Shown here: positions 2,592 to 31,100 of the stretch, in pieces
How positions within the stretch are numbered: the first letter of the stretch is position 1
Layout: each line of letters starts with the position of its first letter
From: Dirinaria sp. TL-2023a
Lineage: Eukaryota
Assembly (NCBI GenBank): GCA_051941275.1
Contig: JAVEBF010000036.1
Coordinates: 1 to 41,956, forward strand
Length of the DNA: 41,956 bases
Reading direction: 5' to 3'
The notes under the pieces: generated by a model
Told to the model about the DNA's origin: nothing
Database searches by the model: none
What the model saw: only the letters and a program-made list of their open reading frames with translations
Program-made: the position numbers and the translations under genes

Positions 2592-4113
2592 TTTGACAAG
2601 ACGATCATTTTGAACAACAGTGCAGTCTGAGACCATCTCTCAGATTATGATTGGGCGTCAGAGGCTGGTGATGGACAAACTGTTCAGTCGTAGACTTTCG
2701 TCATTGTATCAGTGAATCAGAGCATGAAGGGATGGTGCTCTAAATACAACTAGGAAGCCCAGAATGTAATCGTGAATCGTCATCTCACGTGATCGCCACC
2801 AACTCCGCGTCAAGTCGAGTACCATACCTGGCACGCCATCAATTTCAACCTCAAGGCTGCCCTCTGGAGCACCTCTGACACCCTGCAATGTCTACCCTCT
2901 CACACTGCCTTTACGACTGAAGTATTGTCTCCAAACAGGCAATCGGATTCTTCTTCTTATTCTTAGGCAAATCATTAGTGATAATGCTAACATTGCCCTG
3001 ACTAGAATCAGCTAAATATGACTATCGTGGGTGCTCAGAATTCCCTTGAGAATAACTAGTTTCGTGTTATCGCCTCGTATATTGCCTCTGTGCGTTCGTG
3101 AACTCGTGATCTACATGAGGCTCTAACAAGCTCTTCGAATCCTCAAAGTGCAGTCGACAACACAGTTGAAATTCTGAGGCTCAAGATCTTATCACGAATC
3201 CCGTTTCCTACAGACGTGATCCTGTCAAAAAGGCTACAGCAAATTCGTATACTTATTCCTGTCGCGAGCTAAACTTTAAGCTCAAAAATTTGCATTTTCA
3301 AGAGGATCGAGAGAAAAGCAAATTATGATCAATTCAAAGCTGAAAAGAGTGTGGTTGACTGCTTACAGCGGGACGTATGGACATGCTCTCGAAAGTAGAA
3401 TGAAATTTGTTGGTGGATCTTCTTCACAACTCTACCTGTCTCGATCTTATTCGAGATCCCCAGGAGTGGAAATTTTAATCTACACAAGCTCAGACTGAGT
3501 TCAGATAGCGATAGTCTCTCATTCAATGCTGCAAACTCTGACAGTGGAAGTGAGCTAGATCTGGGGTAACTATTTCATATTCAATGATCGTCACGAATAT
3601 GCTTCGTAGCGATCAATTGCCCAGTATCCTGCAGGTCCTAAGCACAGACTCATCATATCAGAGGAGGAAGCAATAGCAAACCCGCTTTGAAGAAGTCGAA
3701 ATCAAAGGTCTGAGCAGCATAAGTGGCGACTGTAGCCTTAAATGCAAAGAGAACAATCCCTTGGCTGAAGGAAATCAGCTCGGTGAACGCCAGCGAAGTC
3801 GATTGACCAAGCAGAGAAATAGCGGAATTTGCTTGCAGATTGTAGTCGCGCCTTCAGAAATAATGTGTGTGTCACAATTTGTGTCTTTTCTTCATTCTGT
3901 CAATGGATATGTCTCATGAGCTGCGTGGTTATCGATGGTATTCGATGTGATGTCTTCAGCTTTCGAACTTCGAAAGTGAATTAGAAGAGGGGGCTCAATA
4001 TCCTTACGACGAAGAAATCCTGCAGAGTATCGTAGTCACACTGCATATGTGCTCCAATTCCCTTAATCATAAGCTAATCCAGCTTCTCAATATACCAAAA
4101 CCCAAACTTCACA

Positions 4114-5520
4114 ATGTCCTCAATAATGTGTGGCAAGCCGTCGAACGATGAGGAGAGGGATTCTGGTATTTCACTACTCTTATTCTCATCGTGCAAAAAC
4201 ACGTTTGAACCAAACACAGACTGGCTGGACGGTCTTTCTCCTGCTCACCCACTTTTTGATGATGCCGCCCGAATTGAGGAGATTGTGCAATCCCTTAAAG
4301 AAGAGTTGCTCGATGCTATACTCTCGGGCTGCACCATCCTACTCCAACGGACTCCCGGCCACATCTCGTTTCCCATACTCGAGGAGAGTCTCAAGACCTA
4401 CCGATCCCTATGGAAGGCCATCATCTCCGTTCAGAAGTATGGGGTCATCTATTTCTCGAGTAGGGCGGACGCTAGAATTTTTCGCCCACTGTATCTGGCA
4501 GAGACGAGCCTAAGCTCCCACATTGACCGCTTCCTTCGAGAAAATCATAACTTCCACAGGACAGTCAACTACGCCGTCCACTACTTCATCAATAAAGTCA
4601 CGAACAAAGTCATCTATCCACCCAAGGTTGTGCCACCAAATGCAATCTCTTCTGTTGGCTTCAGGCACTTTGCTGTGCGTAAGAAGGATTTTACCTTGAC
4701 GTGCAGCGAAGCTCTGCTAGATGACACCTCAGTCATGTGGGATTTGCATGACTTCGCACACCAAACAGCCGCCAGCCTCTCACCTGAGTTATATGGTTCG
4801 AAATACTTCTCGCACTTGCAATTCCTACCTCCTCGTGCAACGGCCGTCATCCGGTCTCCAGGGTTGCATTCCGCCGATAACGGCCTCAAGATCTCTGATG
4901 GGCTGGTATTTAGCGAGTTATTGACTGGTTTATACACTATCGAGGTCGAGAAGGTATTGGAGGGTTCAACGCAGCATACATATGCTTCGCTCGAACTCAC
5001 ACTTGCAACAGCAGTCGCCGAATACCTCCTGGGGGAGCGGAGCTTACTCCACCCGTCGACAGGCAAGATGCTCCAGCTTGAGTCCAAGATCAGTTTACCC
5101 CAATTGGCAGTGCTGGTGCAGAACAAGGCATACGAGCTCACCGCATCCGAGATCGAGCAGCGCGTCTTTACTCGTGGAGGTCCAGAGGGCGATGCAAGGG
5201 ACCTCCTCGACAAGATGGACACGGCTCAGAGATTAGAAACACTGGCTTCTAGTCGAGAGTGGATGTATTTTGAGGTCCGTAATACCGTCAAGCACCGGGC
5301 TCATAAGACTGCATACCGACAAGTCGCTGAGACGTATCGGAGGCAGCCCAGGTGGCAGTCGCATGACGATGCACAGCTGCTTAGTGCGATACTATCTGCG
5401 CTTGACTATGAGGACTGGAAAGGTGATGGGCCACCCAATCTGTGGGCTTTGGTTGCTGAGCTTCGGTGTTTTGAGCCGCCGGAGACAACATTATCGAGCG
5501 TGGCGAGCATTAGCAGTTAG
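4114..5520 (+). CDS. Intronless 468-aa protein of unknown function with a putative metal-binding WDLHDFAH motif
   Basis: Long uninterrupted ORF with fungal start context (cacaATG) and globular composition; WDLHDFAH, SDGLVFSELL, YELTASEIE and KHRAH segments. Family not recognised. Confidence 0.85.
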   Translation: MSSIMCGKPSNDEERDSGISLLLFSSCKNTFEPNTDWLDGLSPAHPLFDDAARIEEIVQSLKEELLDAILSGCTILLQRTPGHISFPILEESLKTYRSLWKAIISVQKYGVIYFSSRADARIFRPLYLAETSLSSHIDRFLRENHNFHRTVNYAVHYFINKVTNKVIYPPKVVPPNAISSVGFRHFAVRKKDFTLTCSEALLDDTSVMWDLHDFAHQTAASLSPELYGSKYFSHLQFLPPRATAVIRSPGLHSADNGLKISDGLVFSELLTGLYTIEVEKVLEGSTQHTYASLELTLATAVAEYLLGERSLLHPSTGKMLQLESKISLPQLAVLVQNKAYELTASEIEQRVFTRGGPEGDARDLLDKMDTAQRLETLASSREWMYFEVRNTVKHRAHKTAYRQVAETYRRQPRWQSHDDAQLLSAILSALDYEDWKGDGPPNLWALVAELRCFEPPETTLSSVASISS

Positions 5521-5979
5521 ATCAATACAGCATTCTAGTCTATAGAATCCACATGATCCATATCATCGACTTCGACACGTTTAATCGTGAATTCGTGACT
5601 TGTACAGAATGATACATCGACATATGCCCAAGATCCATTAGTCGCTGATCGCTCTTTATTGATGGATCCTGTGACTATGCTTAGCATGTGGATGAAACAC
5701 ATACAGAATCGATTACGATTTACCAGTATTTGCCATCAGCTAGTCCGAGACAATTCGAAGACTCTGCGATGCATCCTGATTTTAAGTCAGTTGGTATTCC
5801 CGATGATGCAGACTGGTCGAGAGTATCCTGAGTAGCTTTTCTATTTTCGGGTAAAGCAGCAAAAGCCCAAACTCAATCTACGTCGTAGGACGATAGTGTT
5901 GAGAGCTTGATTGCGGCTCTGCAGCTTCTCTTTACAGTATGAATCCAAATGATCTGACTGAATTTTAATATCAAGGCTA

Positions 5980-6705
5980 CTATAGCAAACCCGACACCTC
6001 GCCAAGATTCCCAACTATGAAATCCGGCTTCAGTTGTCTACACTTTTCCTGCTCACCATACCCATAACTACACCACACGCTCCTCCCCCCAATATTTTGC
6101 GCATACTTGATATCAGCCTCTGTGTCGCCCACAACAAGAACATTCGCCGCTTGCAAATTCACGATTCCTGCCCGCGCTGGCGTCGACTGCTCAAATGTCG
6201 GCTTTATCGCCATGTTCCAGCTCTCTGGGTCTGGCTTCCGCGGACAATTGGCCGGTTCGCCGTCTCCAACAACAAGCTCAACGAGCGAGGAGATTCGGTT
6301 GACGATGAGGATATCACGCACTGCGGCGATGCCTTTGTTCGAGAGGATCGCGCAAGGAACTGACTGTGCCTGCAAGTCACTAAGCAGCTCATGTACATGT
6401 GCGAAAGGCTTGATAAGGGGGCTGCCGTGCGTCATGTACAGCAAGCGGTATTCGGTGAGGAATTTGTCCAAGAGTGCGGGATCCAGATCTGGCACGCTGG
6501 ACGACGAAGGATAGAGCTGTTTGATGGTCTGGGGAAGAGAAAGTCCCGCAGAAATTGATGCGGCGATAGCTGCCTCTGACGGAGGGGGGACATCAGGTGG
6601 AAGAAGCTGCGAGAATGTGATGGACAGCGTGTGAGCGATTGATTCGTGGGTGTCAAAGAGGGTTCCGTCAAAATCGAAGATGACCAGACCCGTTGAAGAA
6701 GGCAT
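5980..6705 (-). CDS. HAD-superfamily phosphatase (phosphoglycolate phosphatase/Gph-like, cap subclass I), intronless
   Basis: Motif I VIFDFDGTLFDT, motif II LSNK, motif III RKPDP, motif IV VVGDTEAD, and a CSYGYG tail typical of Gph-like HADs. Confidence 0.92.
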   Translation of the reverse strand: MPSSTGLVIFDFDGTLFDTHESIAHTLSITFSQLLPPDVPPPSEAAIAASISAGLSLPQTIKQLYPSSSSVPDLDPALLDKFLTEYRLLYMTHGSPLIKPFAHVHELLSDLQAQSVPCAILSNKGIAAVRDILIVNRISSLVELVVGDGEPANCPRKPDPESWNMAIKPTFEQSTPARAGIVNLQAANVLVVGDTEADIKYAQNIGGRSVWCSYGYGEQEKCRQLKPDFIVGNLGEVSGLL

Positions 6706-7401
6706 GGTCGTGAGGAGGAAGGAATCAGTTCCTGAGTGACCAGGTACTGATGCTGAGATCGTATTAGCTTATTTGGGTATCTACCACAACAATGCCAAAT
6801 CTGTGAAGCTTTGAGTGCAGTACATTATGGCTGCAGCGGATCGGCCTGCGCCTTGGAAATCCTCCTCCTCGATCCTGACCGCTCATGCGGAGTTAGAGTT
6901 TGTGTGTGTAATCAAGCCTCTAAGATTCGACAACTTACAGAAGCTTTTAAATCGTATGCAGTTGAGAATCCGATTTCTATCTTTGACGTCAGAATTAACA
7001 TGATTTGCCACGCATGTATGAGTTGCCTAGAAACATACTTTACTACATGAAAACCGAGAAAGATGCTAGAAGAAAAAAAAGAATAATTTCGGGACGCCTG
7101 AAGGCTTGGGACCGGGAATCGCGATCCGCTCCGATCGAAACTTTGATTCGGTCCGACCCGATCTTAGTCGGTTCTGCAACGAAGCGCGTCTGTGAAGTGA
7201 ATTCGTACTTTCGTAGCTGATCGAGAGGCTTTGACTAGTGAGTAATTGAATATGGTAGTATTCCAAACCCGTAGATCAACATCTTCCTGCAGACATTTCC
7301 CATCAAGCTTTCCCATTCCACCTCGCAGTGAGCGCTCAGCGTAAACTGTAGGTACGAGCAGCTTCCTTCCCAAATTTCCTTCTTTACCCAAATCGCCCGC
7401 C

Positions 7402-8124
7402 ATGTCATCAAGAGCACCCATTTACCTTCTTTCCAGCAGAGATCCCTCTATTCTCACCTTGTTCACTACTTTCTTATCCGCCAACGCAACTCCTCCCATG
7501 ACCATACAAGTCGTGACGGAAATTTCTAAACGTGTCGTCCACGCCTTTTTAGACTCACAAAACCTACCTGCTTCGACCCAAGTAACGCTGATTCCTGTCC
7601 TCCGAGCTGGCTTGCCGATGTATGTTGCAGCGAGTCCAATCTTCCCCAACAGCGACACAGCGTTGGTACAATGCTCCAAAGACAAATCCACGCATGGCCA
7701 TGATAGCGTGCGAGTGGAATGGATGGGCACAAATCCCACCGAAGCTGCGTTGCGCCCCGCTTTCTCGAAGGAGCGGCGCATGGTCATCCTCGACACGATT
7801 CTAGCAACTGGTGACACTCTTCTCAAGTTCTGCGATGAACTATTGGACATAGACGGCCCAGAAAGACATATCACAGTCCTCTGCTGTTACGCGTCTCCTC
7901 AGGCTCTAGCCGCTGTGGCACACCACCGAGCCGTGCACTCAGTTTTTGTAGCACATGAGGCAGAGACTGTGGACGATGACGGTTATCTCGTTCCGTACAC
8001 AAATGGAGACGTAGGCGATAAATTGTTCGGGAAGAAACAGAAAATCTGTCTTGAAGATGATCCGTTCATGCAAAATAGTGAGATTAACGAAACATGTCAA
8101 GTTGGTCTGAAGTTTGAAGGCTAG
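7402..8124 (+). CDS. Uracil phosphoribosyltransferase-like type I PRTase (divergent), intronless
   Basis: IPVLRAGLPM matches the UPRT motif ILRAG; PRPP loop VILDTILATGDT (canonical DPMLATGGS); C-terminal DGYLVPYTNGDVGDKLFG (canonical GYIVPGLGDAGDRLFG). Confidence 0.85.
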   Translation: MSSRAPIYLLSSRDPSILTLFTTFLSANATPPMTIQVVTEISKRVVHAFLDSQNLPASTQVTLIPVLRAGLPMYVAASPIFPNSDTALVQCSKDKSTHGHDSVRVEWMGTNPTEAALRPAFSKERRMVILDTILATGDTLLKFCDELLDIDGPERHITVLCCYASPQALAAVAHHRAVHSVFVAHEAETVDDDGYLVPYTNGDVGDKLFGKKQKICLEDDPFMQNSEINETCQVGLKFEG

Positions 8125-8775: not shown

Positions 8776-10488
8776 AGACGAGGGGCATCTAATCAGCGGA
8801 GGTGGACCTCATGTTGAAAATCAATATTTCTCGAGAAAGACGTATCACTGTCTGCTGTTTGTCGACGATCGTAGGTCCATTACCAAGTCACAAAGCAGTC
8901 TATGAACTAAGCGCAGGACCCCAAGAGATAGTTTCACTTATGTTGGTCACCCTTTTCCTACATAATCGAGAAGACCTATGCTAAGTCGCTTTCAGAGCAG
9001 TCAAAGCAAAGACGTGATGCGACCAAGCGCCTTAGACAATGCGAGACAAGCCTACCTCACCTTGACAAAGACAATCAGACAGACATTTGAAAGGGGGTCA
9101 AGTCATCGTAATAAGTGCAGAGTGAGGTCAACCTTTCTTTGATAGACTTTAGGATAGGCAGAGTGATGGAAATTAGACTTCGGATCTCAGCTTATCTCAA
9201 GGACGAATCAAATATGTTGTGTGACTGAATGATAGCTGGAAAATGTTCAAGTCATGTTGTGTTGCTTCTGATATTTTGCTCTCGACAGTGCTTCCCGATT
9301 AGACTTCCTCTATTGCTCTTGATTAAGTTCATGGTTTCCTTCCTTCTAATACGCTGAAGTCACATGCAAATAGATATTATACTACTCAACGCACTCACAA
9401 CAGATGAGGACGGAAAAGGACAGATCTGGATTCTTAGAGCGATCTGGTCACTCTGTCCACAAACTCAATGTATCGAAGATATATGCCAACGCCCACGCCG
9501 AACAAAGTACTCGGTTGTATCAAGAGAAGAATAAGTTTGACACACGTAACTAATCGGACGACGATGCCAGTATTATTTGGCAGATCTTGAGAGCAAGTCT
9601 CCAAAACAAAGGCAGGAGCATAAGTGTATATCAGACATCGTTCATCGCAAAGTACGTAAATTATATCAGTCACACTTACTCATATCTAGACTCCGTACTG
9701 ATAAGAACAAAAACAAATTTAGAGACCGTGATCATTTGCGAGACAATTTGCGTCGCACTGTCTCTGGCTGCGTCTCTGAAAACGCTCAGCTGGTGTTACT
9801 TTAAGACGGCAGAGTGTTTTCGAAGGCTTTGTATGCGAGCAAGCAGCGATAAATCAATACATGTGTACACTGTCAGCTACGACGAGTTAGATGTCTTAGT
9901 CAAGTTAGTAACCCGGACTTCGGTGGCAGGAAGGGCCATCGCAAGTATTCGTGATGGACGCCAAAGGCTAACGTTTTGATGCGTGCTCGATCCACTCCTT
10001 GTGAGCTAGTATTTCTTAATCCTGGGTGTTTGAAATCATGCGCTCATCTTCTACTCAAATTGCCAATACTAGCTTTCTAGTAGGCTCGCTTTGCTCTCCG
10101 CGGATTCAGAAGTCAGTTCGTATTGACTCCAAGTAATAGTCAGCACGAGTGTGGAGGTATGTCATTCATGTATCCCTCATGACAACTGTATACGACAGTT
10201 TTCATAGATGAATAAATAGAGCACCTGCAGCCTCACCTCTGGCTTTTACGTTAATATTCTCTGCTTCAGTATCGAATTCCATATGTCATTGCTGAAGCTC
10301 TTTTGCTCATCAATTCACATCAAGTATCAGCCGCATATTCAAAGGAAGTCATTGGCGCTAGGCGCAGCATGTTTGGAGGAAAATTTTGCTTGCTATCTAG
10401 ACGCTTCTGGCGCCAGCGAGGCCCAAAATCAATGTACAAGACCTTGACCAATGCCAGTCCCATAGGACATCCAAAGCACGGCTGAAGA

Positions 10489-11394
10489 CTATGAAAAGTA
10501 ATTCGCTTCCATGTCCGCGAGCAGCCCAAGCTGAGTGGGATGCCATCCAAGCTCCCTCTGAGTCTTTTCACTCGAAGTAGGGTTGTCGAGACCGATCAGA
10601 TAAGCAAAGAATCCAATTTTCTCCGTCGCTTCTTCTGGCGATTTTCCTTCCACAGGGAGGTTGAGATGCTTCCCGATCACAGTCATAATGTCTTTTATAG
10701 CGACCCCTTGTTCAGCCACGGCATTATAAGTCGCACCGGCTGTGCCTTTGTCCAGCGCGAGGCGAATCAAGACCGCAGCGTCCTCTCGATGGACAGCCGG
10801 CCATCGAGCCGATCCATCGTTTACGTAAACAACAGAATCCTTCCCGCGGTACATGTCGATCAACATTGGTATCAAGCCACCGTCTCCTGCGCCATGTGTC
10901 GTGGGTGAGAATTGGACTAGCATGCCACGAAATTGTTTCTCCTTGGCAAGTGCGAAAAGAAGGTCCGCAGACTTCATGCGCTCGGCAAGCGGAGTGTTTC
11001 TGTCATCTTCGCTATCTTCAGTGGCAAGTGATCCCTTGCGCTTCGACAATGTGCCGGTAGCTGTGATCAGTGGTTTTCCGGTACCGGCCAATACTTCCGC
11101 CATGGCCTCGATGGCTGCTCGGTCGGCAGCGGCAGCGCGGGGAAAATCCTGAAAATCTCTTGTGAAGGCGAGATGAACAACTCCGTCGACCGCTTTCGCG
11201 CCGCTTCTCAGACTCTCAATGTCTTCTATGCTCCCGGTGTGTGGTTCGGCGCCAGCATTGATGACTTTTTCAGCAGATGCTTCACTGCGGACAAGCCCAA
11301 GCACCTGATGACCATTTTTGACGAGTTCTCGGATGGTGGCACGTCCAATGAAGCCGGCAGCTCCCGTGACAAAGATACGCATGGTTGCCTTCAA
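10489..11394 (-). CDS. Atypical SDR / NAD-dependent epimerase-dehydratase family oxidoreductase (YLL056C-like), intronless
   Basis: Rossmann motif RIFVTGAAGFIG, VVHLAF, RWPAVHREDAA, and C-terminal SSEKTQRELGWHP. The start may be the second Met at 11382. Confidence 0.92.
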   Translation of the reverse strand: MKATMRIFVTGAAGFIGRATIRELVKNGHQVLGLVRSEASAEKVINAGAEPHTGSIEDIESLRSGAKAVDGVVHLAFTRDFQDFPRAAAADRAAIEAMAEVLAGTGKPLITATGTLSKRKGSLATEDSEDDRNTPLAERMKSADLLFALAKEKQFRGMLVQFSPTTHGAGDGGLIPMLIDMYRGKDSVVYVNDGSARWPAVHREDAAVLIRLALDKGTAGATYNAVAEQGVAIKDIMTVIGKHLNLPVEGKSPEEATEKIGFFAYLIGLDNPTSSEKTQRELGWHPTQLGLLADMEANYFS

Positions 11395-12381
11395 CTTCGA
11401 ACGATTATTCGCGCTAGTATGTCGATGAACGAGGGTTGGATGGTAAGCAGAGCGTTGATAATTGACTGTTGATCAGCAGAACGACGGAGACGTGACACTG
11501 ATCTTTATAAAATTCGCTATCTTTGCAGCTCTTTCAGCTCATCCTTCATGCATGGCTGCAGCCCGCATACGTCAGCCCAGCAATTGTTATATCCGAGCCT
11601 GAAATGCTAAGTCCGAGTATGTTTAAGTCCGGGGAACGAGTACGAAGGTCAGGACAAGCATCCTTTGCACTGGTGCGATGATTGAGCATTGCGATCCGCC
11701 GGGCTATTTCTAAGCAGAAAAAGCAATTTTGAAAGTGTCAATCTAAAGTGCTACATAGCCCTAAAACGACCGTAGAGCTCAGAGATCATTAGTCCTAATC
11801 TCCGCGCATCGAGCATTTCGTTCCCCTTGTCTTTCAGCAATATCGCGACTAAAGTCAGATGCGGGCTTCTCTTGATGAATGCAGACAGTGTAACAACCAT
11901 TTTCAAGCGCCTTCGTTAAAGTAGAAGTCAATTAAGCGAATAAATCCTATAGAGCCGATCTCATATCACTAGGCAAGGAGGTGGACAGGCATTTGGATCC
12001 ATCGGACACGGCTAAAGACTTGGCACACTAGGTGATTGTCATCCTCTAGAAAGTATAATTAGTATTCACGCTGAGACTTCTCATAGTAACAGCAATAACA
12101 TTGGGTGACTCCTGAGTCAATTCTCGAGCACGAGCATGAGAGATGACTACCAAAAAGTTCCGTGATCTATACAGTATCAGGCAGGAGATTTAGAGCCTAA
12201 AACTGCTAGCCTCCTGACACAGACGATTGCTCGTGAGAGCGATTCTAGTAGAGTTGATGGAAGAGCTCACAGTCTCCTAAGTACCATCTCTTTCACGGCG
12301 AAGATCGCCCTCTCCGACCTTTTGATGATGTACAAATTCGAAGAGTTCCCGTTGAAATCCTCCTCTATTTTTTTGACAATT

Positions 12382-18774: not shown

Positions 18775-19149
18775 TTACCATGTATCTGGCCCCATCCTGT
18801 CTAACAAGTACAGATTTCCGCTAGACAAGCAGAGGAAAGGTCCACCGGGCCGAATGTCGCGGCCTTTCATTCTCAGAAGTCTGTATCTTGCGTATCTGTC
18901 CTGATGTATTATTCTGGCAATGTTCGCGAATGGTAGCCTCAGAAAGAGGCTTTTTGAAGTCAAGTTCAGCGCCGTGGCAGACTCAGGTGGTAGCTCCCGC
19001 GCTATTTTCTGTAGAATCTCTGTTGGTAGGGAGAGGAGATTCGTCTTGTTCTCGGGTTGAATTGCTGTGGGTTTTGCGAGCATCCTTCTGAGGTAGGACA
19101 TGAAGGATAGGACGGTGCACTCGAGGATTTTCCGTAGAAGCGAAATCAT
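18775..19149 (-). pseudogene. F-box-like gene fragment or relic
   Basis: LLSLPTEILQKIARELPPESATALNLTSKSLF resembles a fungal F-box N-terminus; the frame ends early and downstream sequence has stops. Confidence 0.45.
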
Positions 19150-20068
19150 GTTGATGCGAATGATAGCTGTAATTTTTGATCGATATGAAGGAAATAATAA
19201 GGGTTGGTCGTCCCATCACGCTTAAATATCGCTCGCTGAACATCACATTGTCCCGCATTCGAAGAAAAGTTTCAACGATCGTGAGAATTCTCCAAATTCC
19301 CGGCACTAGGTCCTCAACAGAAGACCGTTGAGAAGCGGATCAGACGGCAATTCAACATCAACGCCTTTTGAAGCACTAGCGATAAAATGACTCACGGAGG
19401 GTTCGAGTCTCCATCGCGACGCCAGAGGCTATGATTACAGCCAGATACACGGTGCAACAGCACTTGCATCACTATCCGTAATTGACCCACTGAAGGTCAC
19501 AGGCAGCCTCGGATCCAGCCAATCATCATCTTCGGACAGTCCCTTTTACAACAATAGGACATGCATATAGATGACGTTCCATCGTAAAAACCACTTCAAT
19601 CGAAGTTTCATCTCAATACACGTTTTGATCCCTCAGTCGCAAGAACAAGTAAAGCAAGAACAACAGATTTAAGAAGCCAACAGGCACCATTAGCCCCAGA
19701 CTCTATGGCTGCATACGAGCTCTTTGATAAAAAGCGATTGAAACAGAGGAGATGGCGTGTAGATCCCCACCCACCTCTAATAATAGCGGCACCGCGCCTG
19801 CTACTTGATTGCCTTTCTAGGATTCTATGTTGAAGATGGAGTTACCGAGTCTTGGGCAGTGATAGTATATCAGTTAAAAATTAGGAGCGAAGTTTTCAGT
19901 CTAAGATAAAATGGACGTTTAGGAAAAAATATTATGTTGGACTGTAGACCTGTTGCGTTGACTATGATATTCCATAGGCATACGATCTGCACGTGTAAGA
20001 TGCGTGCAATTGCTAGCATAGCAGTAGCTGTGACCCAAAATATTTTGGGAAAGAGGGTGGCTCAGCGT

Positions 20069-23000
20069 TTAAGGCAACGCAGTCGATTGAACCTGCGCAT
20101 CCATTGCATGATCTGTCACAGGTACTCGAATCTGCCCATCGCTGATCTGCGTCACCGGTGCATTAAGAGTCGAAGAAATTTCCTTGGATACACCCTGGAA
20201 TATGCCACCCCTCGTCAAGGACTCAAGGCCAGTAATTCTCAACACATTGTTAGCGAAAGCTGTCAAGCCGCCTTGTAGCGATAATCCATTCAATGTGATA
20301 TTCCTAGTTGAAGCTTTAGCCCCAGTAATTGTCACGTTACCGAGTGGATTCGTGTCGACGAAAGACCCAGTGATGTTGAGCGTGATGGATTCGCTGGCGT
20401 ATGATATCTATGGATCACTCAGCCATTATACAAGCGAAACATGAATGCGGCATGTAGGACTCACTTCGATATACTTCGTCGCATTTTGGATGAGGCTCTC
20501 TCCGTCATCCAAGTAGAGCGAGCCACTTGCCATTCCTCGACTATCAAGTGCAATGATCAGGTTATAAGGGTTCTGCCTCGAGGTTGCTGTTGTATTACCG
20601 GGTTGCTGCAAGACAAGAATTGACCCTCCTCGAATGAAGACAGGTATATGGCCCAGAGGTGCGTCGATCGTGGTGTTTACGCCTGCCTGCGCCTCGACTC
20701 TCTCAAGGGTGTACCAGTCATACCAGATCGTCCCCTGAGAAACACCCGGAAAGATGCCCTTCACGGAGCTTACCTGCGGCTCCAAGACGGGGGTGATGAG
20801 GAGAGAAGGTCCAAGCATGAATTGGTTATCGACTGCAGCTAGTTGAGGGTCGTTAGGAAATTCCCATGCTAAAGCTCGCATCACGGTCTCGGCTTGTGTA
20901 TGTGCCGCGTGAAACAACGTATAAATATATGGCAATAAGGAGTACCGAATAGACATCACTGTCCTCGTCGCTTCGGCTACGCTCTCCCAAACATAGGCCT
21001 CCTGAGAGATTGCTGTGATAGTATTATGATTGCGGTAGAATGGGAAAAAAGCGCTAAGTTGCATCCACCGACTGCAAAGTTCGTAGTCTGTGTTCCCTGC
21101 AAAACCGCATGTATCGACTCCGAACATTGGAATGCCTGCAATAGCAAATTGCAAAGCTTGAGAGATTGAGAAGTACATTGAGGGCCATTTGGAGTAATTG
21201 TCGCCACCCCAGTGAGACGTGACGGTACCAGAGCCAGCAAAGGTGGAGCGACCGACAGTGAAGGGGCGGCGATTGGGAAATATATTGAGAAGAGCATGAT
21301 AGGTTGCATTGGAAATTTGAAGACCAAAAAGATTATGCTGTTCGTATTCCGTGGTATTGAAGGCGTCATTGTGAGTCGCATTGGGAGCGATACCACCTTT
21401 CACTAGAGAATGTCCGGCAAGGAAACTGTTGATGACATAGGGAGGAAAGTTCAAGTTACGGATGCCTGGCGTAGGGACCGTAGTTGGGTAGGCAGACGAC
21501 GATGAGGTTGATGCGGCCGTGGCTGAACTCATGGAGGCTTGGGACGTGGATGCAGAAGAAGCAGAGGCTGCTGCTGTCGAGTTGGTAGCATTAAAATCCT
21601 CGGGGTAGTCGAGGACCAAATTCCCAGGGTCTCCTGGCAATGCAAACGGGGGATGCGCTGGATTGATATTCAGCTGGCCGGTCCCGCAGCTGCCGACACA
21701 GTAGGAGGAGGCTTCGCTCAAGTCTATCCAAATTCCATCGAAAGGAATGTCATGGTGCCAGTTCGCGAGCTCGAATGTCCAAAAATCTTGCGCCGTGGGA
21801 CCTAGGAAATCTGGCCAGACAGAAAAGCCTGGCCACTGATCGCCGTAATAGAACGTTCCGTCTGAATTACGGATGAAGGCACCTAACTCGGCGCCTCTAG
21901 TATAGACGTCGTAAGAGTCGCTCGAATTAGTAGGGTCAGGAGCATAGATGTTAGAATCAACGATCGGAACGTAGTGTTGGCCTGCTGCATGGAGCTTGTT
22001 CAAGAAGTCTCGGCCAGCAGGCACCGGGAAGTTCAGAGGTCCATTTGTAAAGTCCCTATATTCATCCATATCTGGAAATAACGTCAGACAAGGGAGAACC
22101 TAGAGGCATGAATGAACATAGCGTACAGTCAATATCATTCCATATCGTCTCTAATTGAATCCCCGCGTTTGCGTACGAGTCAACTACGTCCTGCATAACG
22201 GACCAGTTCTGGTAGCCCCAGCGGCATTGATGGTATCCGAAAGTCCAGTACATCTGCATAGCTGGGTATCCAATAATACCACCTTGGTATTGGGCAATAA
22301 CTTCCTTGGCGGTGGGACCGCTGAGGAAATAAAAGTCGAAGCTTCCACCAATGGTCCTGTATGTAATGTTACCATCTCGTAAAAGCCACTCTTGCCCATG
22401 AGCATTACGCGCGTAGACACCATGGGATAATGAAGCTGAGTTGTTTTGGTAGCGGTTCTCAAGGTAGACAGGATGGGTCCCATAGAGATTGCTACTCGCC
22501 AAATTAGCTCTAGCATCCATCAGGAGGTGAAGATCCCTATATAAACACGAAATCAAACATTTTTCAGACATTTCTGTACGTGCAAACAGTGGGAAAATCG
22601 CCAGCGAGCTCAACAAAGGTTTACAATTCGCTGAGAAACATAAATCTATGCCTGAAGAAGTTTGAACGATTACCTGTTAATCGGATTGCCGTTGTCAATA
22701 GCGTAGAAAGTCCGGGTAAAGTTGTTACCAAGTCTGAAATTGTTGATGCCATCTGACAAGCCGTATACATTATAGTCGGGCACCATGGATGTAACAAGTT
22801 CTAGGAATTGGTCCTCGAAGACAAGGACAGTGCCCATTGTGCTAAAGATAACTTCATTGCCACGTGATATCTCGAACTGAAAACTCGGTGTGTTCGAATA
22901 CGTGAAATTTAGGTCGTTACCGGTTAGGGATGCACCTTCATCTACCCCCGGAAGCCCAGTAAGAGATTCTGGAAGAATGTATTGGGATGTGTTAGCTGAA

Positions 23001-23411
23001 TTCAAGTACCGAGGCACAATCTTAACATTCAGGCGCTGCTGGTTCTGGTACTCAACCACCAACGACAGGTCAACAATATCATTTCCGTAGGCGTGACATG
23101 GCTCTCCTGCAAGCGTGAGATCCGCTGTGTAGCCATGTGCAGTGGCTTCAACATTCAAAGCTTTATAGCCAGGACATAAGTCCTGAGCGATAGGCGCTGT
23201 AGGATCAGAAATGGTGGGTACTAGACTAGGGGCGGCATTAATAGAAGTATTGAGTGTTGGAATTGGCGTAAAAAGAGGTGATGTTGGTGCTAAGATACAT
23301 CACAGTCAGAAAATCATTGCTTGGGAACTGGAGCCACTGACTCTGTGCCAAAGAAGGACGTGCTAGCCACAGAGAAGCGGCTACTATGGTAGCGGTTCCG
23401 AGGATTGCCAT
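20069..23411 (-). CDS. Secreted glycoside hydrolase family 31 alpha-glucosidase (AgdA-like), multi-exon
   Basis: Signal peptide MAILGTATIVAASLWLARPSLAQ at 23411; CPGYKA, NLYGTHP, GYHQCRWGY, IWNDID; nucleophile region GIWIDLSEASSYCVGSCG; acid/base HWGGDN; RWMQLSAFFPFYRNHN; LYLDDGES. The exact 3' end is less certain. Confidence 0.95.
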
Positions 23412-28188: not shown

Positions 28189-31100
28189 TCAATCCGGGTC
28201 GTCATCATACCACGGGTTGAGGGCTCCGAGCATGTGCTTCCAGATATTACCATCCCACGGGGTTGTATCTACAATGTCCCTATCAAAGATTAGTCAAGGT
28301 TGCTATGCATTGGCACAATCAGACTGGGCTGCTCACATATCATCGGCTTGTAAGCCTAGCCCATGATCCAAGTGTTCAAGACGGGCCTTCGCTTGAGGAT
28401 CATCCCCAAATCGAATAAACTGTATGCCGACGTGTTCCTTTAGCAGTCTATGCTCTTTCATGCTTTCAACCAAGGATTTAATCACTGGTCCCACATCGCT
28501 CTGCGGCTGCCATCTTCCATCTGTGAGGACGTAGAAGCTTAAAGGTCGATGAGATTCGGCACGACGAGGTTTCCACTTGTACCACGACTTTGAAGGAGTT
28601 GTGGTGGTGCCGAATTTGGCAATATGCTCTTGTAAAATCTGACCCAGTCGGGCTCGCATGTTGGAGATTCCCTGGAATGGTGCCCGGGACACAGCCATTG
28701 AAAGATCTGTGGATTTCGAAGAATGAGCCGAATGTGTTGACTGAGTGAAATAAACGTCCAGGCCATTGGGATCCGAGTCTTTCACTATATACCCTAGCAG
28801 TGATACAACGCTGATAGCATTATTGCGATGCGGTAACATGGATTTGGTATTGTCGATGACGAAGATCTAGATGTTACATTAGCAAGGTCCAGACCGAGTC
28901 TGGTTGATGGGCTGAAGCACTCACGTGATCTCGTATGTTCAGGCTCGACAAATTTTCTTCGCCATGCAGCGGATCGTGAAGGCCTTGCTTTTTATTCCTC
29001 TTCCATCGCAGACCTTCGCTCAAAGATACATGGGGTGGCTTTTCTTCGTGCTCTTGAGCTTGAGATTTTGATGAGGTCGGGTTATCTGCGGTTCGGGACG
29101 ACGTTGCGCCATCGCTGTTTAGTGAATCTGCTGCTGAGATATAATTGGAATGATCTCGAGTAGGCCTATTTGAAAAGTGACTGGACGTCCTCGTGGTGTC
29201 TTCCGCGAGTCGGTGTCCTCGCAGCGGCGCATGCTTCGCTGCGCTACTAGGTCCACGGTCCAATTGTTGGCTACCTATTCCTTGATGAGTACCTCCTGCG
29301 TGGAACGGAGATAGACTGCTGGCGTCGGTATCTGATGAATGGTAAGAGAAAGCAGGACTAGGTGGGTCAGGCAGATCATGCAGAGTATTCGAGCCAGAAT
29401 GAAACGGTCCGAATGATTCGTCGGCTACCTGGGCTTGGTGATATCCATTGACTGTTTTCATTTGATGCTGGCGGTGTGCTAATCGAGTCTGTAATTTCGG
29501 AGTGTCCCTTTTCGTCCGGTTCCAAGACAATGGCCGTGGGAATAGAGGAGCCTCAATATCTCGGCCTGTGGTCTTGTGCGAAGGCTCCCCAGATTTGCTC
29601 ATGTACCCAGGTGGAACATTTGGAGGTGTTATTGGTCGCTCTTCAAAGTCACTACCGTGCTCTGCCTCTTGACCATGCCTCGAAGAGTCTCTTGTTATGC
29701 TGATCCCAATTGTTTTACGCGTCGTGTCGATGATGCGTGTAGACTCCGTCAAAATATCTATTGCGGAAGCACGCTGCTCATGTTCATTCAGTAGCATCTT
29801 TTTATTTACGAGCTGCAAGATTTTAACAATGACCCGATGGATCAATCGAGACGTGTTGGCAATGTGTTCGTGTGTCTCTCGCACCGTTCGCAGCACGTTG
29901 TGCTCATCATGGAACCATTCCTCTCCAGAGAGATCGAGATGCTCGTGAATCTCATTTGTTCGGCGACATCGATACTCAAGCAGGCGATTCCAACCAAAGC
30001 GCGACCAGACAGCTGCCTCGCTGAACACGCAGCCCATGGACCAAATGTCGACATTCTGTTTCACGGATACAGGAACGGGATCAATCCTACGGTCGGACCT
30101 GAACGTCTCTGGAGCACCTACAGGAATTTTAAGCCGTCGTTCTGCAAAGGATAGGGATAATTACCGTAAGCTCTGGTACCAACGACGTCTCGATCAAAAT
30201 CTTGATTGTGAGTGAAATGACACGAAGTTAAATCCGCAAGCTTGAAGTAGACGTCATAGCTCGAGGTTCCACTCCCACTCATGATGAGTATGTTGCCAGG
30301 TTTGATATCTTGATGCCATCTAAATCCTTTGTGAGCTATAGTTATGTGCGAAAAGGGGTCGAAGCAAGGCATACCCAAGCAGGCGGTCTCGGTATCCATG
30401 GATAACTGCGAGGCCGTGTGTGATCTTGCAGAGCCGTTCCCAAAGGGCTATCATATCTTCTGGGGTAGACGGAGGAGGCGTGACCCTCATGAAATTTTCA
30501 AGATTCCCTTTATCTGCATATTCCAAAATGATATTGTAGGTGTCGTCGTCAATGAAACTTCCGTAGTAGGCGACGATGAAGGGAGAGGGCTTGCCATCGT
30601 GTCTAAGGATTTTGAATGCATTTTGCTCGTTTTTGTGCTGTTCTTTAGCATCGAGGCCACGGTACGTCTTGAGGACGAAAGTATTTTGTAGGTCTGGGGG
30701 ACGTTCCTGTGGCAGCATTAATTATCTGAAGCGTTGGTTGGGGATCTTCGTTCATACCGGCATCTGCCAATGGTGCGGCACTAGCTTGTTGTATTCCTTA
30801 TCGACAACAATCTTGAACACCTTTGCATTTCCTCCCCACCCAATCTCCTCCTTGTGTGTTATTGGTAGTATCTCCTCTTTATGAAGATTAAGATCCATGT
30901 TGTACTCGAGATCTGCAGCGCAAAATTGCCATTGTTCGCTATGAAAACGGTCAAAAAGGTTAGAATCCGATGAGCGGGGAAAATCTTCAGGCCGGGTCCG
31001 AAATGGCAGGCGGTGATCCATTAGACTAAGGTATCGAACGAAGACCTGGATCATGGGACCTTGTCCAATCAATAACAGAATTGCTAGCGGTCGAAGGTAG

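Follow-up and report, generated by a model that had tools for sequence, protein, structure and literature searches.

Are the three adjacent genes at positions 4114..8124 of contig JAVEBF010000036.1 from Dirinaria sp. TL-2023a a single functional unit, and if they are, on what might they act? We analysed the whole 41,956-nt stretch in which they lie (the window), about which an earlier note had proposed that an unnamed gene (U), read there as a metalloprotein, a gene for a HAD phosphatase (HAD) and a gene for a phosphoribosyltransferase (PRTase) resembling uracil phosphoribosyltransferase (UPRTase or UPRT; the window's own copy is called PRT here) form a mini-cluster for nucleoside or nucleobase analogues. 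Because the genes are linked in relatives, lie together in bacterial operons and are joined in fusions of U, the three are, on sequence evidence, one functional unit, an inter-kingdom module, and the claim of linkage is upheld. We consider it an even call that the trio is the fungal copy of a conserved HAD_2 + U + type-I PRTase module acting on a nucleoside 5′-monophosphate (NMP). The trio is laid out as follows:

4114..5520, plus strand: U, an ATG-to-stop open reading frame (ORF) of 468 aa without a named family.
5521..5979, no strand: spacer of 459 bp, on which U and HAD converge with their 3′ ends.
5980..6705, minus strand: HAD-IA phosphatase, an ATG-to-stop ORF of 241 aa, Pfam HAD_2.
6706..7401, no strand: intergenic region of 696 bp between the divergent HAD and PRT.
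7402..8124, plus strand: UPRT-like type-I phosphoribosyltransferase (PRT), an ATG-to-stop ORF of 240 aa, Pfam UPRTase PF14681.

ORFs, Pfam matches and homologues agree on three intact genes at these coordinates and in these orientations, as the earlier note had described them. Homologues at E <= 0.001 number 121 for U (clusters at 90% identity, 5.8 billion), 323 for HAD and 27 for PRT, and judged by these counts all three are genuine genes. Query coverage is 91–98% in most full-length matches for U, 96–100% for HAD and ∼88% for PRT, and the single-exon structure of the trio agrees with this end-to-end collinearity. The trio had been called intronless, which holds insofar as all three genes are collinear with their homologues over the full length, with the reservation that a 3′ intron is possible in PRT, as its last ∼26 residues (8044-8121, following ...GDKLFGKKQK) have no counterpart in 20/20 aligned relatives, which end within a few residues of the GDKLFG motif. 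This tail could be a lineage-specific extension or the product of a missed 3′ intron. The 696-bp divergent region is presumed to be a shared promoter, and the intergenic regions of the trio hold no notable repeat, just short two-copy matches as chance predicts. The content of G+C at third codon positions is 0.51–0.59 in the trio versus 0.47–0.55 in six adjacent ORFs; recent horizontal transfer by composition was dropped because the trio is not distinctive from its neighbours. The same match in base composition would favour a reading in which three unrelated genes lie together by chance, with the PRTase a housekeeping FUR1.

If the trio is a unit then its members should keep company elsewhere. 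Taking a single genome for each species of bacteria or archaea (185,579 species genomes), we scanned with a 12-sequence U alignment, using two strict peptide patterns, and recovered five bacterial loci, which is a lower bound. Genes in these loci were assigned by ORF calling together with Pfam, NCBIfam, hmmsearch and phmmer, and their order is:

L001, an Actinomycetes metagenome-assembled genome (MAG): HAD_2, U and UPRT-like gene, co-directional, with overlaps or 18-bp gaps.
L002, a Gammaproteobacteria MAG: U, ankyrin-repeat gene, a 553-aa gene without assignment, HAD_2.
L003, a Solirubrobacteraceae MAG: U and UPRT-like gene, then a convergent HAD_2.
L004, Brenneria sp.: ankyrin-repeat gene, Cof-type HAD, HAD_2, U, adenine PRTase, pterin-4a-carbinolamine-dehydratase-like (PCD-like) gene.
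L005, Pseudoalteromonas ardens: EamA, IMPase-like gene, ankyrin-repeat gene, Cof-type HAD, HAD_2, U, adenine PRTase, CCA/PcnB-like nucleotidyltransferase, HlyD, MFS.

A HAD_2 gene lies no more than 2.3 kb from U in all five, and in four of the five a PRTase follows U immediately, drawn from two PRTase families; in the operons of L004 and L005 stop and start codons overlap. The UPRT-like proteins of L001 and L003 score 102 and 101 bits against a profile of the window's PRT subfamily, and for the adenine PRTases (APRT) of L004 and L005 the scores are 186-187 bits, where the cut-off is 125. The closest bacterial locus is L002 for window U (36.6%, E 7e-88) and for window HAD (32.5%, E 1.5e-37), and L003 for window PRT (35%, E 7e-21).

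Linkage in fungi was read by proxy, by matching the sizes of the longest contigs across the U, PRT and HAD match lists and without reading the DNA itself; 119 of the 323 HAD matches were listed and compared, so that counts of shared contigs involving HAD are minima. At least five contig sizes (12890, 34440, 37653, 39393 and 45704 bp) appear in all three lists, and for such three-way matches the identity ranks run in parallel, for example U/PRT/HAD at 79/77/82% and at 53/47/55%. U and HAD have at least 18 contig sizes in common, about two of which could match by chance; 12 of them are <= 100 kb, and among these are sizes of 7046 and 7728 bp as well as contigs from Trichophaea hybrida (58,697), Aspergillus bertholletiae (79,694) and A. 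coremiiformis (94,966). Eight sizes are common to U and PRT and at least seven to HAD and PRT, and at least 10/26 PRT matches share a contig size with U or HAD (10/17 where the contig is >= 5 kb). Taken together, these counts support a widely conserved U+HAD pair, which PRT appears to join in the window's own clade.

U is also physically joined to enzymes of the same kind. Among 13 of the 150 listed U representatives, picked for a Pfam fusion scan as over-long or distant, three are PRTase fusions, in both orders (UPRTase-U in P0268 and P0288, U-UPRTase in P0303), and one, P0368, carries a domain of the PRK/uridine-kinase family whose nearest NCBIfam model is uridine kinase (77 bits, versus 34 for phosphoribulokinase); of the remainder, eight show no family and one a spurious match. 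The fusion polypeptides are continuous with short linkers, and the fused PRTase domains are nearest to Upp in NCBIfam, under its cut-off, and carry the subfamily signature GD.GDKL(F/Y)G, in P0288 as GDMGNKLFG. As the three PRTase fusions sit in three different clades of the U tree, the fusion would have arisen more than once.

The window's PRT matches Pfam UPRTase PF14681 (E 1.7e-22, 80.3 bits against a gathering score of 27; profile positions 55-205 of 206), and with the PF14681 fold, the PRPP (phosphoribosyl diphosphate) loop and an LRAG motif it shares the outline of the housekeeping salvage enzymes Upp and FUR1; the fusion of U to a Udk-like kinase is a further likeness to housekeeping salvage (Udk/URK1), and Udk-UPRT fusions occur naturally in eukaryotes. 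The segments in question are LR68AG, LD131TILATGDT, which aligns to the LDPMLATG loop of the bacterial structures 1o5o and 1i5e, and GYLVPYTNGDVGDKLFG (residues 194-210). This last segment, which we take to correspond to the uracil-binding part of Upp, is one residue longer than the GYI(I/V)PGLGDAGDRLF of the aligned Upp structures and differs from it by several substitutions, and its subfamily form GY.VP.T.GD.GDKLFG is invariant across 21 members. PRT is nearer to bacterial Upp structures (E 1.3e-10 with 1o5o) than to that of Toxoplasma UPRT (E 7e-3), yet falls below both NCBIfam Upp equivalog cut-offs (86.3 versus 114 bits for NF001097, 78.6 versus 208.35 for TIGR01091). Its 27 relatives are without names, bar two implausible JGI labels: '4a-hydroxytetrahydrobiopterin dehydratase' is attached to two fungal-type homologues (P0134, P0138) for which UPRTase is the only Pfam family listed. 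Because it scores under both cut-offs and belongs to a narrow subfamily with a changed C-terminal segment and a narrow distribution, PRT does not look like an orthodox Upp/FUR1, and a housekeeping FUR1 is unlikely. The earlier note had said what would count against it, namely homologues of the trio that are neither linked elsewhere nor co-expressed, together with a PRTase that is merely the sole housekeeping FUR1; linkage elsewhere was found, and the scores and the narrow distribution speak against FUR1. As linkage recurs among relatives, across four bacterial lineages and as fusions, and as a PRTase below both cut-offs has so few detectable relatives, chance adjacency of unrelated genes is scarcely credible. 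The description of the PRTase as UPRT-like fits the window's protein, whereas in two bacteria the slot is filled by an adenine-PRTase paralogue.

The HAD protein matches HAD_2 (PF13419, E 2.1e-23) and keeps all four catalytic motifs, D11FD13GT, S122, K157 and G193DTEAD198, for which we assumed the HAD-IA definitions DxDxT, S/T, K and GDxxxD; HAD-IA enzymes of this type are phosphatases. It lies below the NCBIfam equivalog cut-offs for phosphoglycolate phosphatase (NF009695, the best match, 89.5 versus 225 bits) and PpaX (66.6 versus 218), and on these scores HAD is not an ordinary housekeeping copy. HAD homologues also occur in Fusarium and Trichoderma, two genera without a U homologue among the 120 matches listed.

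What then is U? A profile search with HMMER, run exhaustively over 1.84 billion representatives, gave just 163 members at E <= 0.001, and every named U homologue is a 'hypothetical protein'. Hosts include Aspergillus, Penicillium, dermatophytes and other Onygenales, Leotiomycetes, Dothideomycetes, Xylariales and other Sordariomycetes, and Pezizales; Xylaria bambusicola has two paralogues (P0082, P0094). The JGI label 'sarcosine oxidase delta subunit' on two U homologues finds no support in this analysis. No family was found for window U in Pfam at E <= 0.1 or in NCBIfam, the best E in a sequence-profile search of the PDB was 1, and Pfam run on 42 U members at E <= 1 gave 18 families, each matched by one member only. 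Nevertheless, the sequence is strongly constrained: an alignment of 37 fungal-type U sequences has 31 invariant columns, including D210-L-H212-D213-x-x-H216, Q336/K338/Y340/E341, E348, R354, E387/R389 and H394/R395, and H212, H216, E341 and R389 (window numbering) are invariant in 42 U sequences at a mean column identity of 26%. The main motifs are:

4741..4761, plus strand: D210-L-H212-D213-F-A-H216 (HDxxH), both His invariant family-wide.
5119..5139, plus strand: Q336-N-K-A-Y-E341-L, E341 invariant family-wide.
5272..5304, plus strand: E387-V-R389-N-T-V-K-H394-R-A-H, R389 invariant family-wide.

AlphaFold2 models window U (37-sequence alignment) as a mostly helical protein with a mean pLDDT of 90.4 and a pTM of 0.89, and a second, independent model of a non-fungal member (42-sequence alignment) reaches 94.4 and 0.92. 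Foldseek finds no PDB neighbour at E <= 0.001 for either (best E 0.66 with TM <= 0.15 for the first model and 0.055 with TM <= 0.17 for the second), and a structure search of BFVD gave none (best E 0.095). In the ESM Atlas, the U homologue P0033 leads only to DUF6604 at 0.87, under the lead threshold of 0.9, and the member P0269 to unnamed bacterial clusters only. The modelled fold of U is thus confidently predicted yet without a recognised relative.

In the model of window U the invariant His, Asp and Glu residues are spread over different predicted helices, accompanied by Arg and Lys residues, an arrangement that fits a metal- and phosphate-binding site, and we infer from the sequences that the HDxxH residues would be metal ligands. 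The label metalloprotein in the earlier note is thus an interpretation and goes beyond the invariant His/Asp/Glu motifs that the sequence shows. Helical HExxH zinc peptidases (M3, M32, M2) recur among the sub-significant PDB matches of both models and share a mostly helical build, a length of 450-560 aa and a His-x-x-x-His on a helix; however, these matches all have E >= 0.09 and TM <= 0.13, there is no sequence-profile match, and the acidic residue is Glu there and Asp in U. The resemblance, together with the invariant HDxxH, is only a lead to the putative metal site and not a relationship. Other ideas prompted by motif spacing (HD-domain, zincin, heme-oxygenase-like di-iron, terpene synthase) found no support from Pfam or Foldseek and were set aside. 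A prediction of a U and PRT complex, run without alignments, scored 0.00, which says nothing on whether the two bind.

UPRT-like enzymes, APRT and uridine kinase each yield a nucleoside 5′-monophosphate. As the varied partners of U (UPRT-like, APRT, Udk-like) all make NMPs, the comparison points to an NMP as the probable substrate of U. The PRTase would couple a base to PRPP to give the NMP, U would transform that nucleotide, its invariant His, Asp, Glu, Arg and Lys suggesting a metal- and phosphate-binding active site, and HAD would remove the 5′-phosphate and so release a modified nucleoside. As U and HAD_2 are constant members and the PRTase is not always of one kind, one may speculate that the conserved chemistry falls on the ribose-phosphate part or on a feature common to several bases. 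A fuller version, in which U is a metal-dependent nucleotide enzyme of new fold that with HAD turns the NMP supplied by its partner PRTase or kinase into an undescribed modified nucleoside, in bacteria and filamentous fungi alike, and in which the cassette entered early Pezizomycotina from bacteria as a unit, is a possibility that we hold tentatively. Still more speculative is that U is a hydroxylase, an idea prompted by the PCD-like gene that ends the Brenneria operon (L004 9547-9882; 70 bits against a cut-off of 133). A recurring link to pterin dehydratases was considered and dropped, as such a gene occurs in one of the five bacterial loci and is absent from the window.

Several points weigh against a module acting on NMPs. 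The genes, their linkage across kingdoms and the fusions are observed, while the order of steps, metal dependence, substrate, product and any export of that product are our inference, and metal binding by U has no backing from any structural neighbour (Foldseek, both models). L002 has no PRTase beside U. Fungal synteny is a proxy, and one coincidental duplicate size (9108) occurs inside the U list. The named fungi (Aspergillus, Penicillium, dermatophytes, Xylariales, Pezizales) show U+HAD only, the subfamily PRT not being found in them by a word-indexed search in which 358 candidates were scored. The fusions are unannotated predicted proteins, and for any eukaryotic one a gene-model merge is possible, in which case the genes would still be adjacent and co-directional. 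Finally, Pfam recognised no transporter, regulator or core synthase gene among the window ORFs beside the trio: in 28 stop-to-stop ORFs >= 120 aa across the 42 kb it found no polyketide synthase (PKS), nonribosomal peptide synthetase (NRPS), terpene synthase or DMATS, although short exons could escape, and only epimerase (NAD-epimerase), methyltransferase, GH31, amidase, kinase and rhodopsin-domain genes. The description of a mini-cluster is borne out in part: a linked trio appears to exist near the window's lineage, but the module is not specific to fungi, being also bacterial, and most named fungi show U+HAD only.

That last set of observations bears on a different reading, in which the module serves salvage, repair or catabolism and makes no secreted product: within the cell it would recycle or detoxify bases or nucleotides that are aberrant or come from outside, the PRTase capturing the base, U correcting or opening it and HAD taking off the phosphate. 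The spread of the U+HAD pair across many Pezizomycotina classes, without an adjacent PKS, NRPS or transporter in the window, would suit such a role, as would the partners APRT and Udk-like kinase, which are ordinary salvage enzymes, and the HADs, which resemble phosphoglycolate phosphatase and PpaX and weakly YjjG-type nucleotidases, all house-cleaning enzymes. We nonetheless think this reading doubtful, since U is rare and patchy for a general repair enzyme (121 clusters, 163 representatives, at least five loci among the species genomes scanned) and since the L005 operon leads directly into HlyD and MFS export genes, with an EamA transporter ahead of it. Export genes flank the U operon in L005 only. 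Two further genes stand in the same co-directional run as U in that locus, one for an IMPase/HisN-like phosphatase (4978-5796) and one for a CCA/PcnB-like nucleotidyltransferase head domain (9542-10393).

The closest published parallel to the trio is the minimycin/indigoidine cluster of Streptomyces, and the analogy that had been drawn to it is closer than stated. In the minimycin study (PMC6908994), MinC joins a HAD phosphatase to DUF4243, an uncharacterised domain and putative oxidase, the two domains being sometimes separate proteins; beside it stands MinD, a 240-aa UPRTase shown to make UMP; and MinC(N), MinD and MinT act as safeguards. The likeness extends to a tiny cluster of a HAD, an uncharacterised enzyme domain and a UPRTase-type gene of ∼240 aa, in which the HAD takes the 5′-phosphate off a nucleotide intermediate, a parallel to the role proposed for HAD here. 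The differences are that the NRPS (MinA/IndC) and C-glycosynthase (MinB/IndA) were not found by Pfam in the 28 window or 39 bacterial-locus ORFs, that U matches no Pfam model, including DUF4243 of the C-terminal part of MinC/IndB, that the domain fused to the HAD there is replaced by fusions of U to the PRTase here, and that MinD makes UMP whereas the window PRT is a sub-threshold relative of Upp.

This parallel raises the alternative that the genes are safeguards of the minimycin type, PRT raising the normal NMP pool and HAD dephosphorylating a toxic nucleotide, with the analogue itself made by U and genes elsewhere. MinD and the N-terminal HAD of MinC are reported as protective, and the combination of HAD, oxidase-like domain and UPRTase mirrors the trio (PMC6908994). 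We judge this unlikely, for U and PRTase are fused in either order and across three clades, which suggests consecutive catalysis more than pool adjustment, PRT lies under the Upp cut-offs with its base-binding C-terminal segment altered, and the absence of the NRPS, the C-glycosynthase and DUF4243 noted above counts against it as well.

Two other nucleoside pathways offer partial parallels to the proposed scheme. In the angustmycin pathway, as reviewed in PMC12648386, the APRT-like enzyme AgmE couples a base to a phosphosugar diphosphate, after which the phosphatase AgmB frees the nucleoside; likewise, the PRT position of L004 and L005 is held by an APRT paralogue. The epimerase, pyrophosphokinase and AgmF-type dehydratase genes were, however, not found among the window and bacterial-locus ORFs, and U has no counterpart there. 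The toyocamycin cluster has a PRTase-type gene (ToyH) and a HAD-type gene (ToyI), so that the analogy stands for gene content, but it is weaker than had been stated, as according to the same review their functions 'have yet to be verified' (PMC12648386), and no deazapurine (preQ0) genes occur among the window ORFs scanned.

Where did the fungal genes come from? In a quick LG+G4 tree of U (61 rows, many of deviant composition) all 16 fungal rows, named or near the window, form one clade with an SH-aLRT support of 93 (99 with P0101), nested in a tree whose only other taxonomically anchored members are bacteria; L002 falls in a clade adjacent to the fungi, with L001/L003 and L004/L005 further out. 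Branching within the fungal clade ignores class boundaries. Among the unlabelled rows, most range over extremes of amino-acid composition, and some begin with Val in the manner of prokaryotic gene calls. The nested clade, the composition and Val starts of the unlabelled rows, and the intronless genes together suggest that the fungal genes derive from an old transfer of the module from a bacterium to a fungus, and the clade is a candidate inter-kingdom transfer of an entire metabolic cassette.

A patchy distribution across phyla is also what one might see if the bacterial module modified or depleted nucleotides during phage attack or microbial conflict, the fungal copy being a domesticated remnant. 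Ankyrin-repeat genes, unusual in bacteria, stand beside U in all three gammaproteobacterial loci and so in 3/5 overall (L002 9272-9757, L004 5975-6424, L005 5882-6373), and that of L004 matches a PADLOC candidate ankyrin model. L003 is flanked by ArdC-N/DUF6782-type genes, which are typical of mobile elements. PRTase and HAD domains are present in some defence systems (PMC13092281). Yet PADLOC 2.0 has no family for U or HAD and matches the PRTases only marginally (PRTase_III-A or ShosT, E 1.8e-3 to 5e-3), tblastn over 72,556 plasmids and 50,697 phage records found no relative of U, and the fungal clade, being old and conserved, is not what a defence remnant usually looks like; a role in immunity is accordingly quite improbable. 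The HAD of the DefensePredictor system DS-9, which is paired with a metallophosphatase, is unrelated (PMC13092281). In L003 the flanking genes are the ArdC-N/DUF6782 gene at 4001-5059 and a GGDEF diguanylate cyclase gene at 10934-12169, and in L002 two large ORFs without a Pfam family adjoin U, at 9769-11430 (553 aa, between the ankyrin-repeat gene and HAD_2) and at 5573-6913 (446 aa).

The logic of a PRTase followed by a phosphatase has precedents among a few nucleoside antibiotics of bacteria, and what is new here is the unnamed enzyme family at its centre, which has no name, Pfam model or structural relative yet is conserved and linked or fused to three kinds of NMP-forming enzyme. A literature search, which included homologue locus tags and covered papers outside subscription, found no description of the U family or of the module. 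The module offers a concrete entry point to what may be new nucleotide chemistry, may mark fungal and bacterial nucleoside products invisible to genome mining for core enzymes, and in the three-gene Actinomycetota operon (L001) provides a minimal system for reconstitution.

The remainder of the window holds genes of other kinds, and by these families and the named homologues of U and HAD it resembles a stretch of a Pezizomycotina chromosome. A membrane protein gene with a fungal-rhodopsin domain (PF20684) lies at 1564-2588 on the plus strand, ∼1.5 kb upstream of U, and has at least two exons. A weak F-box-like match (18778-19215, minus strand) and a protein-kinase fragment that falls short of the gathering score (30323-30721, minus strand) are each probably an exon of a larger gene, and an amidase (PF01425) gene at 37194-39037 on the plus strand has at least three exons. 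A GH31 alpha-glucosidase-type gene (20429-23299, minus strand) extends over three frames and ORFs and is therefore intron-containing, unlike the single-exon trio.

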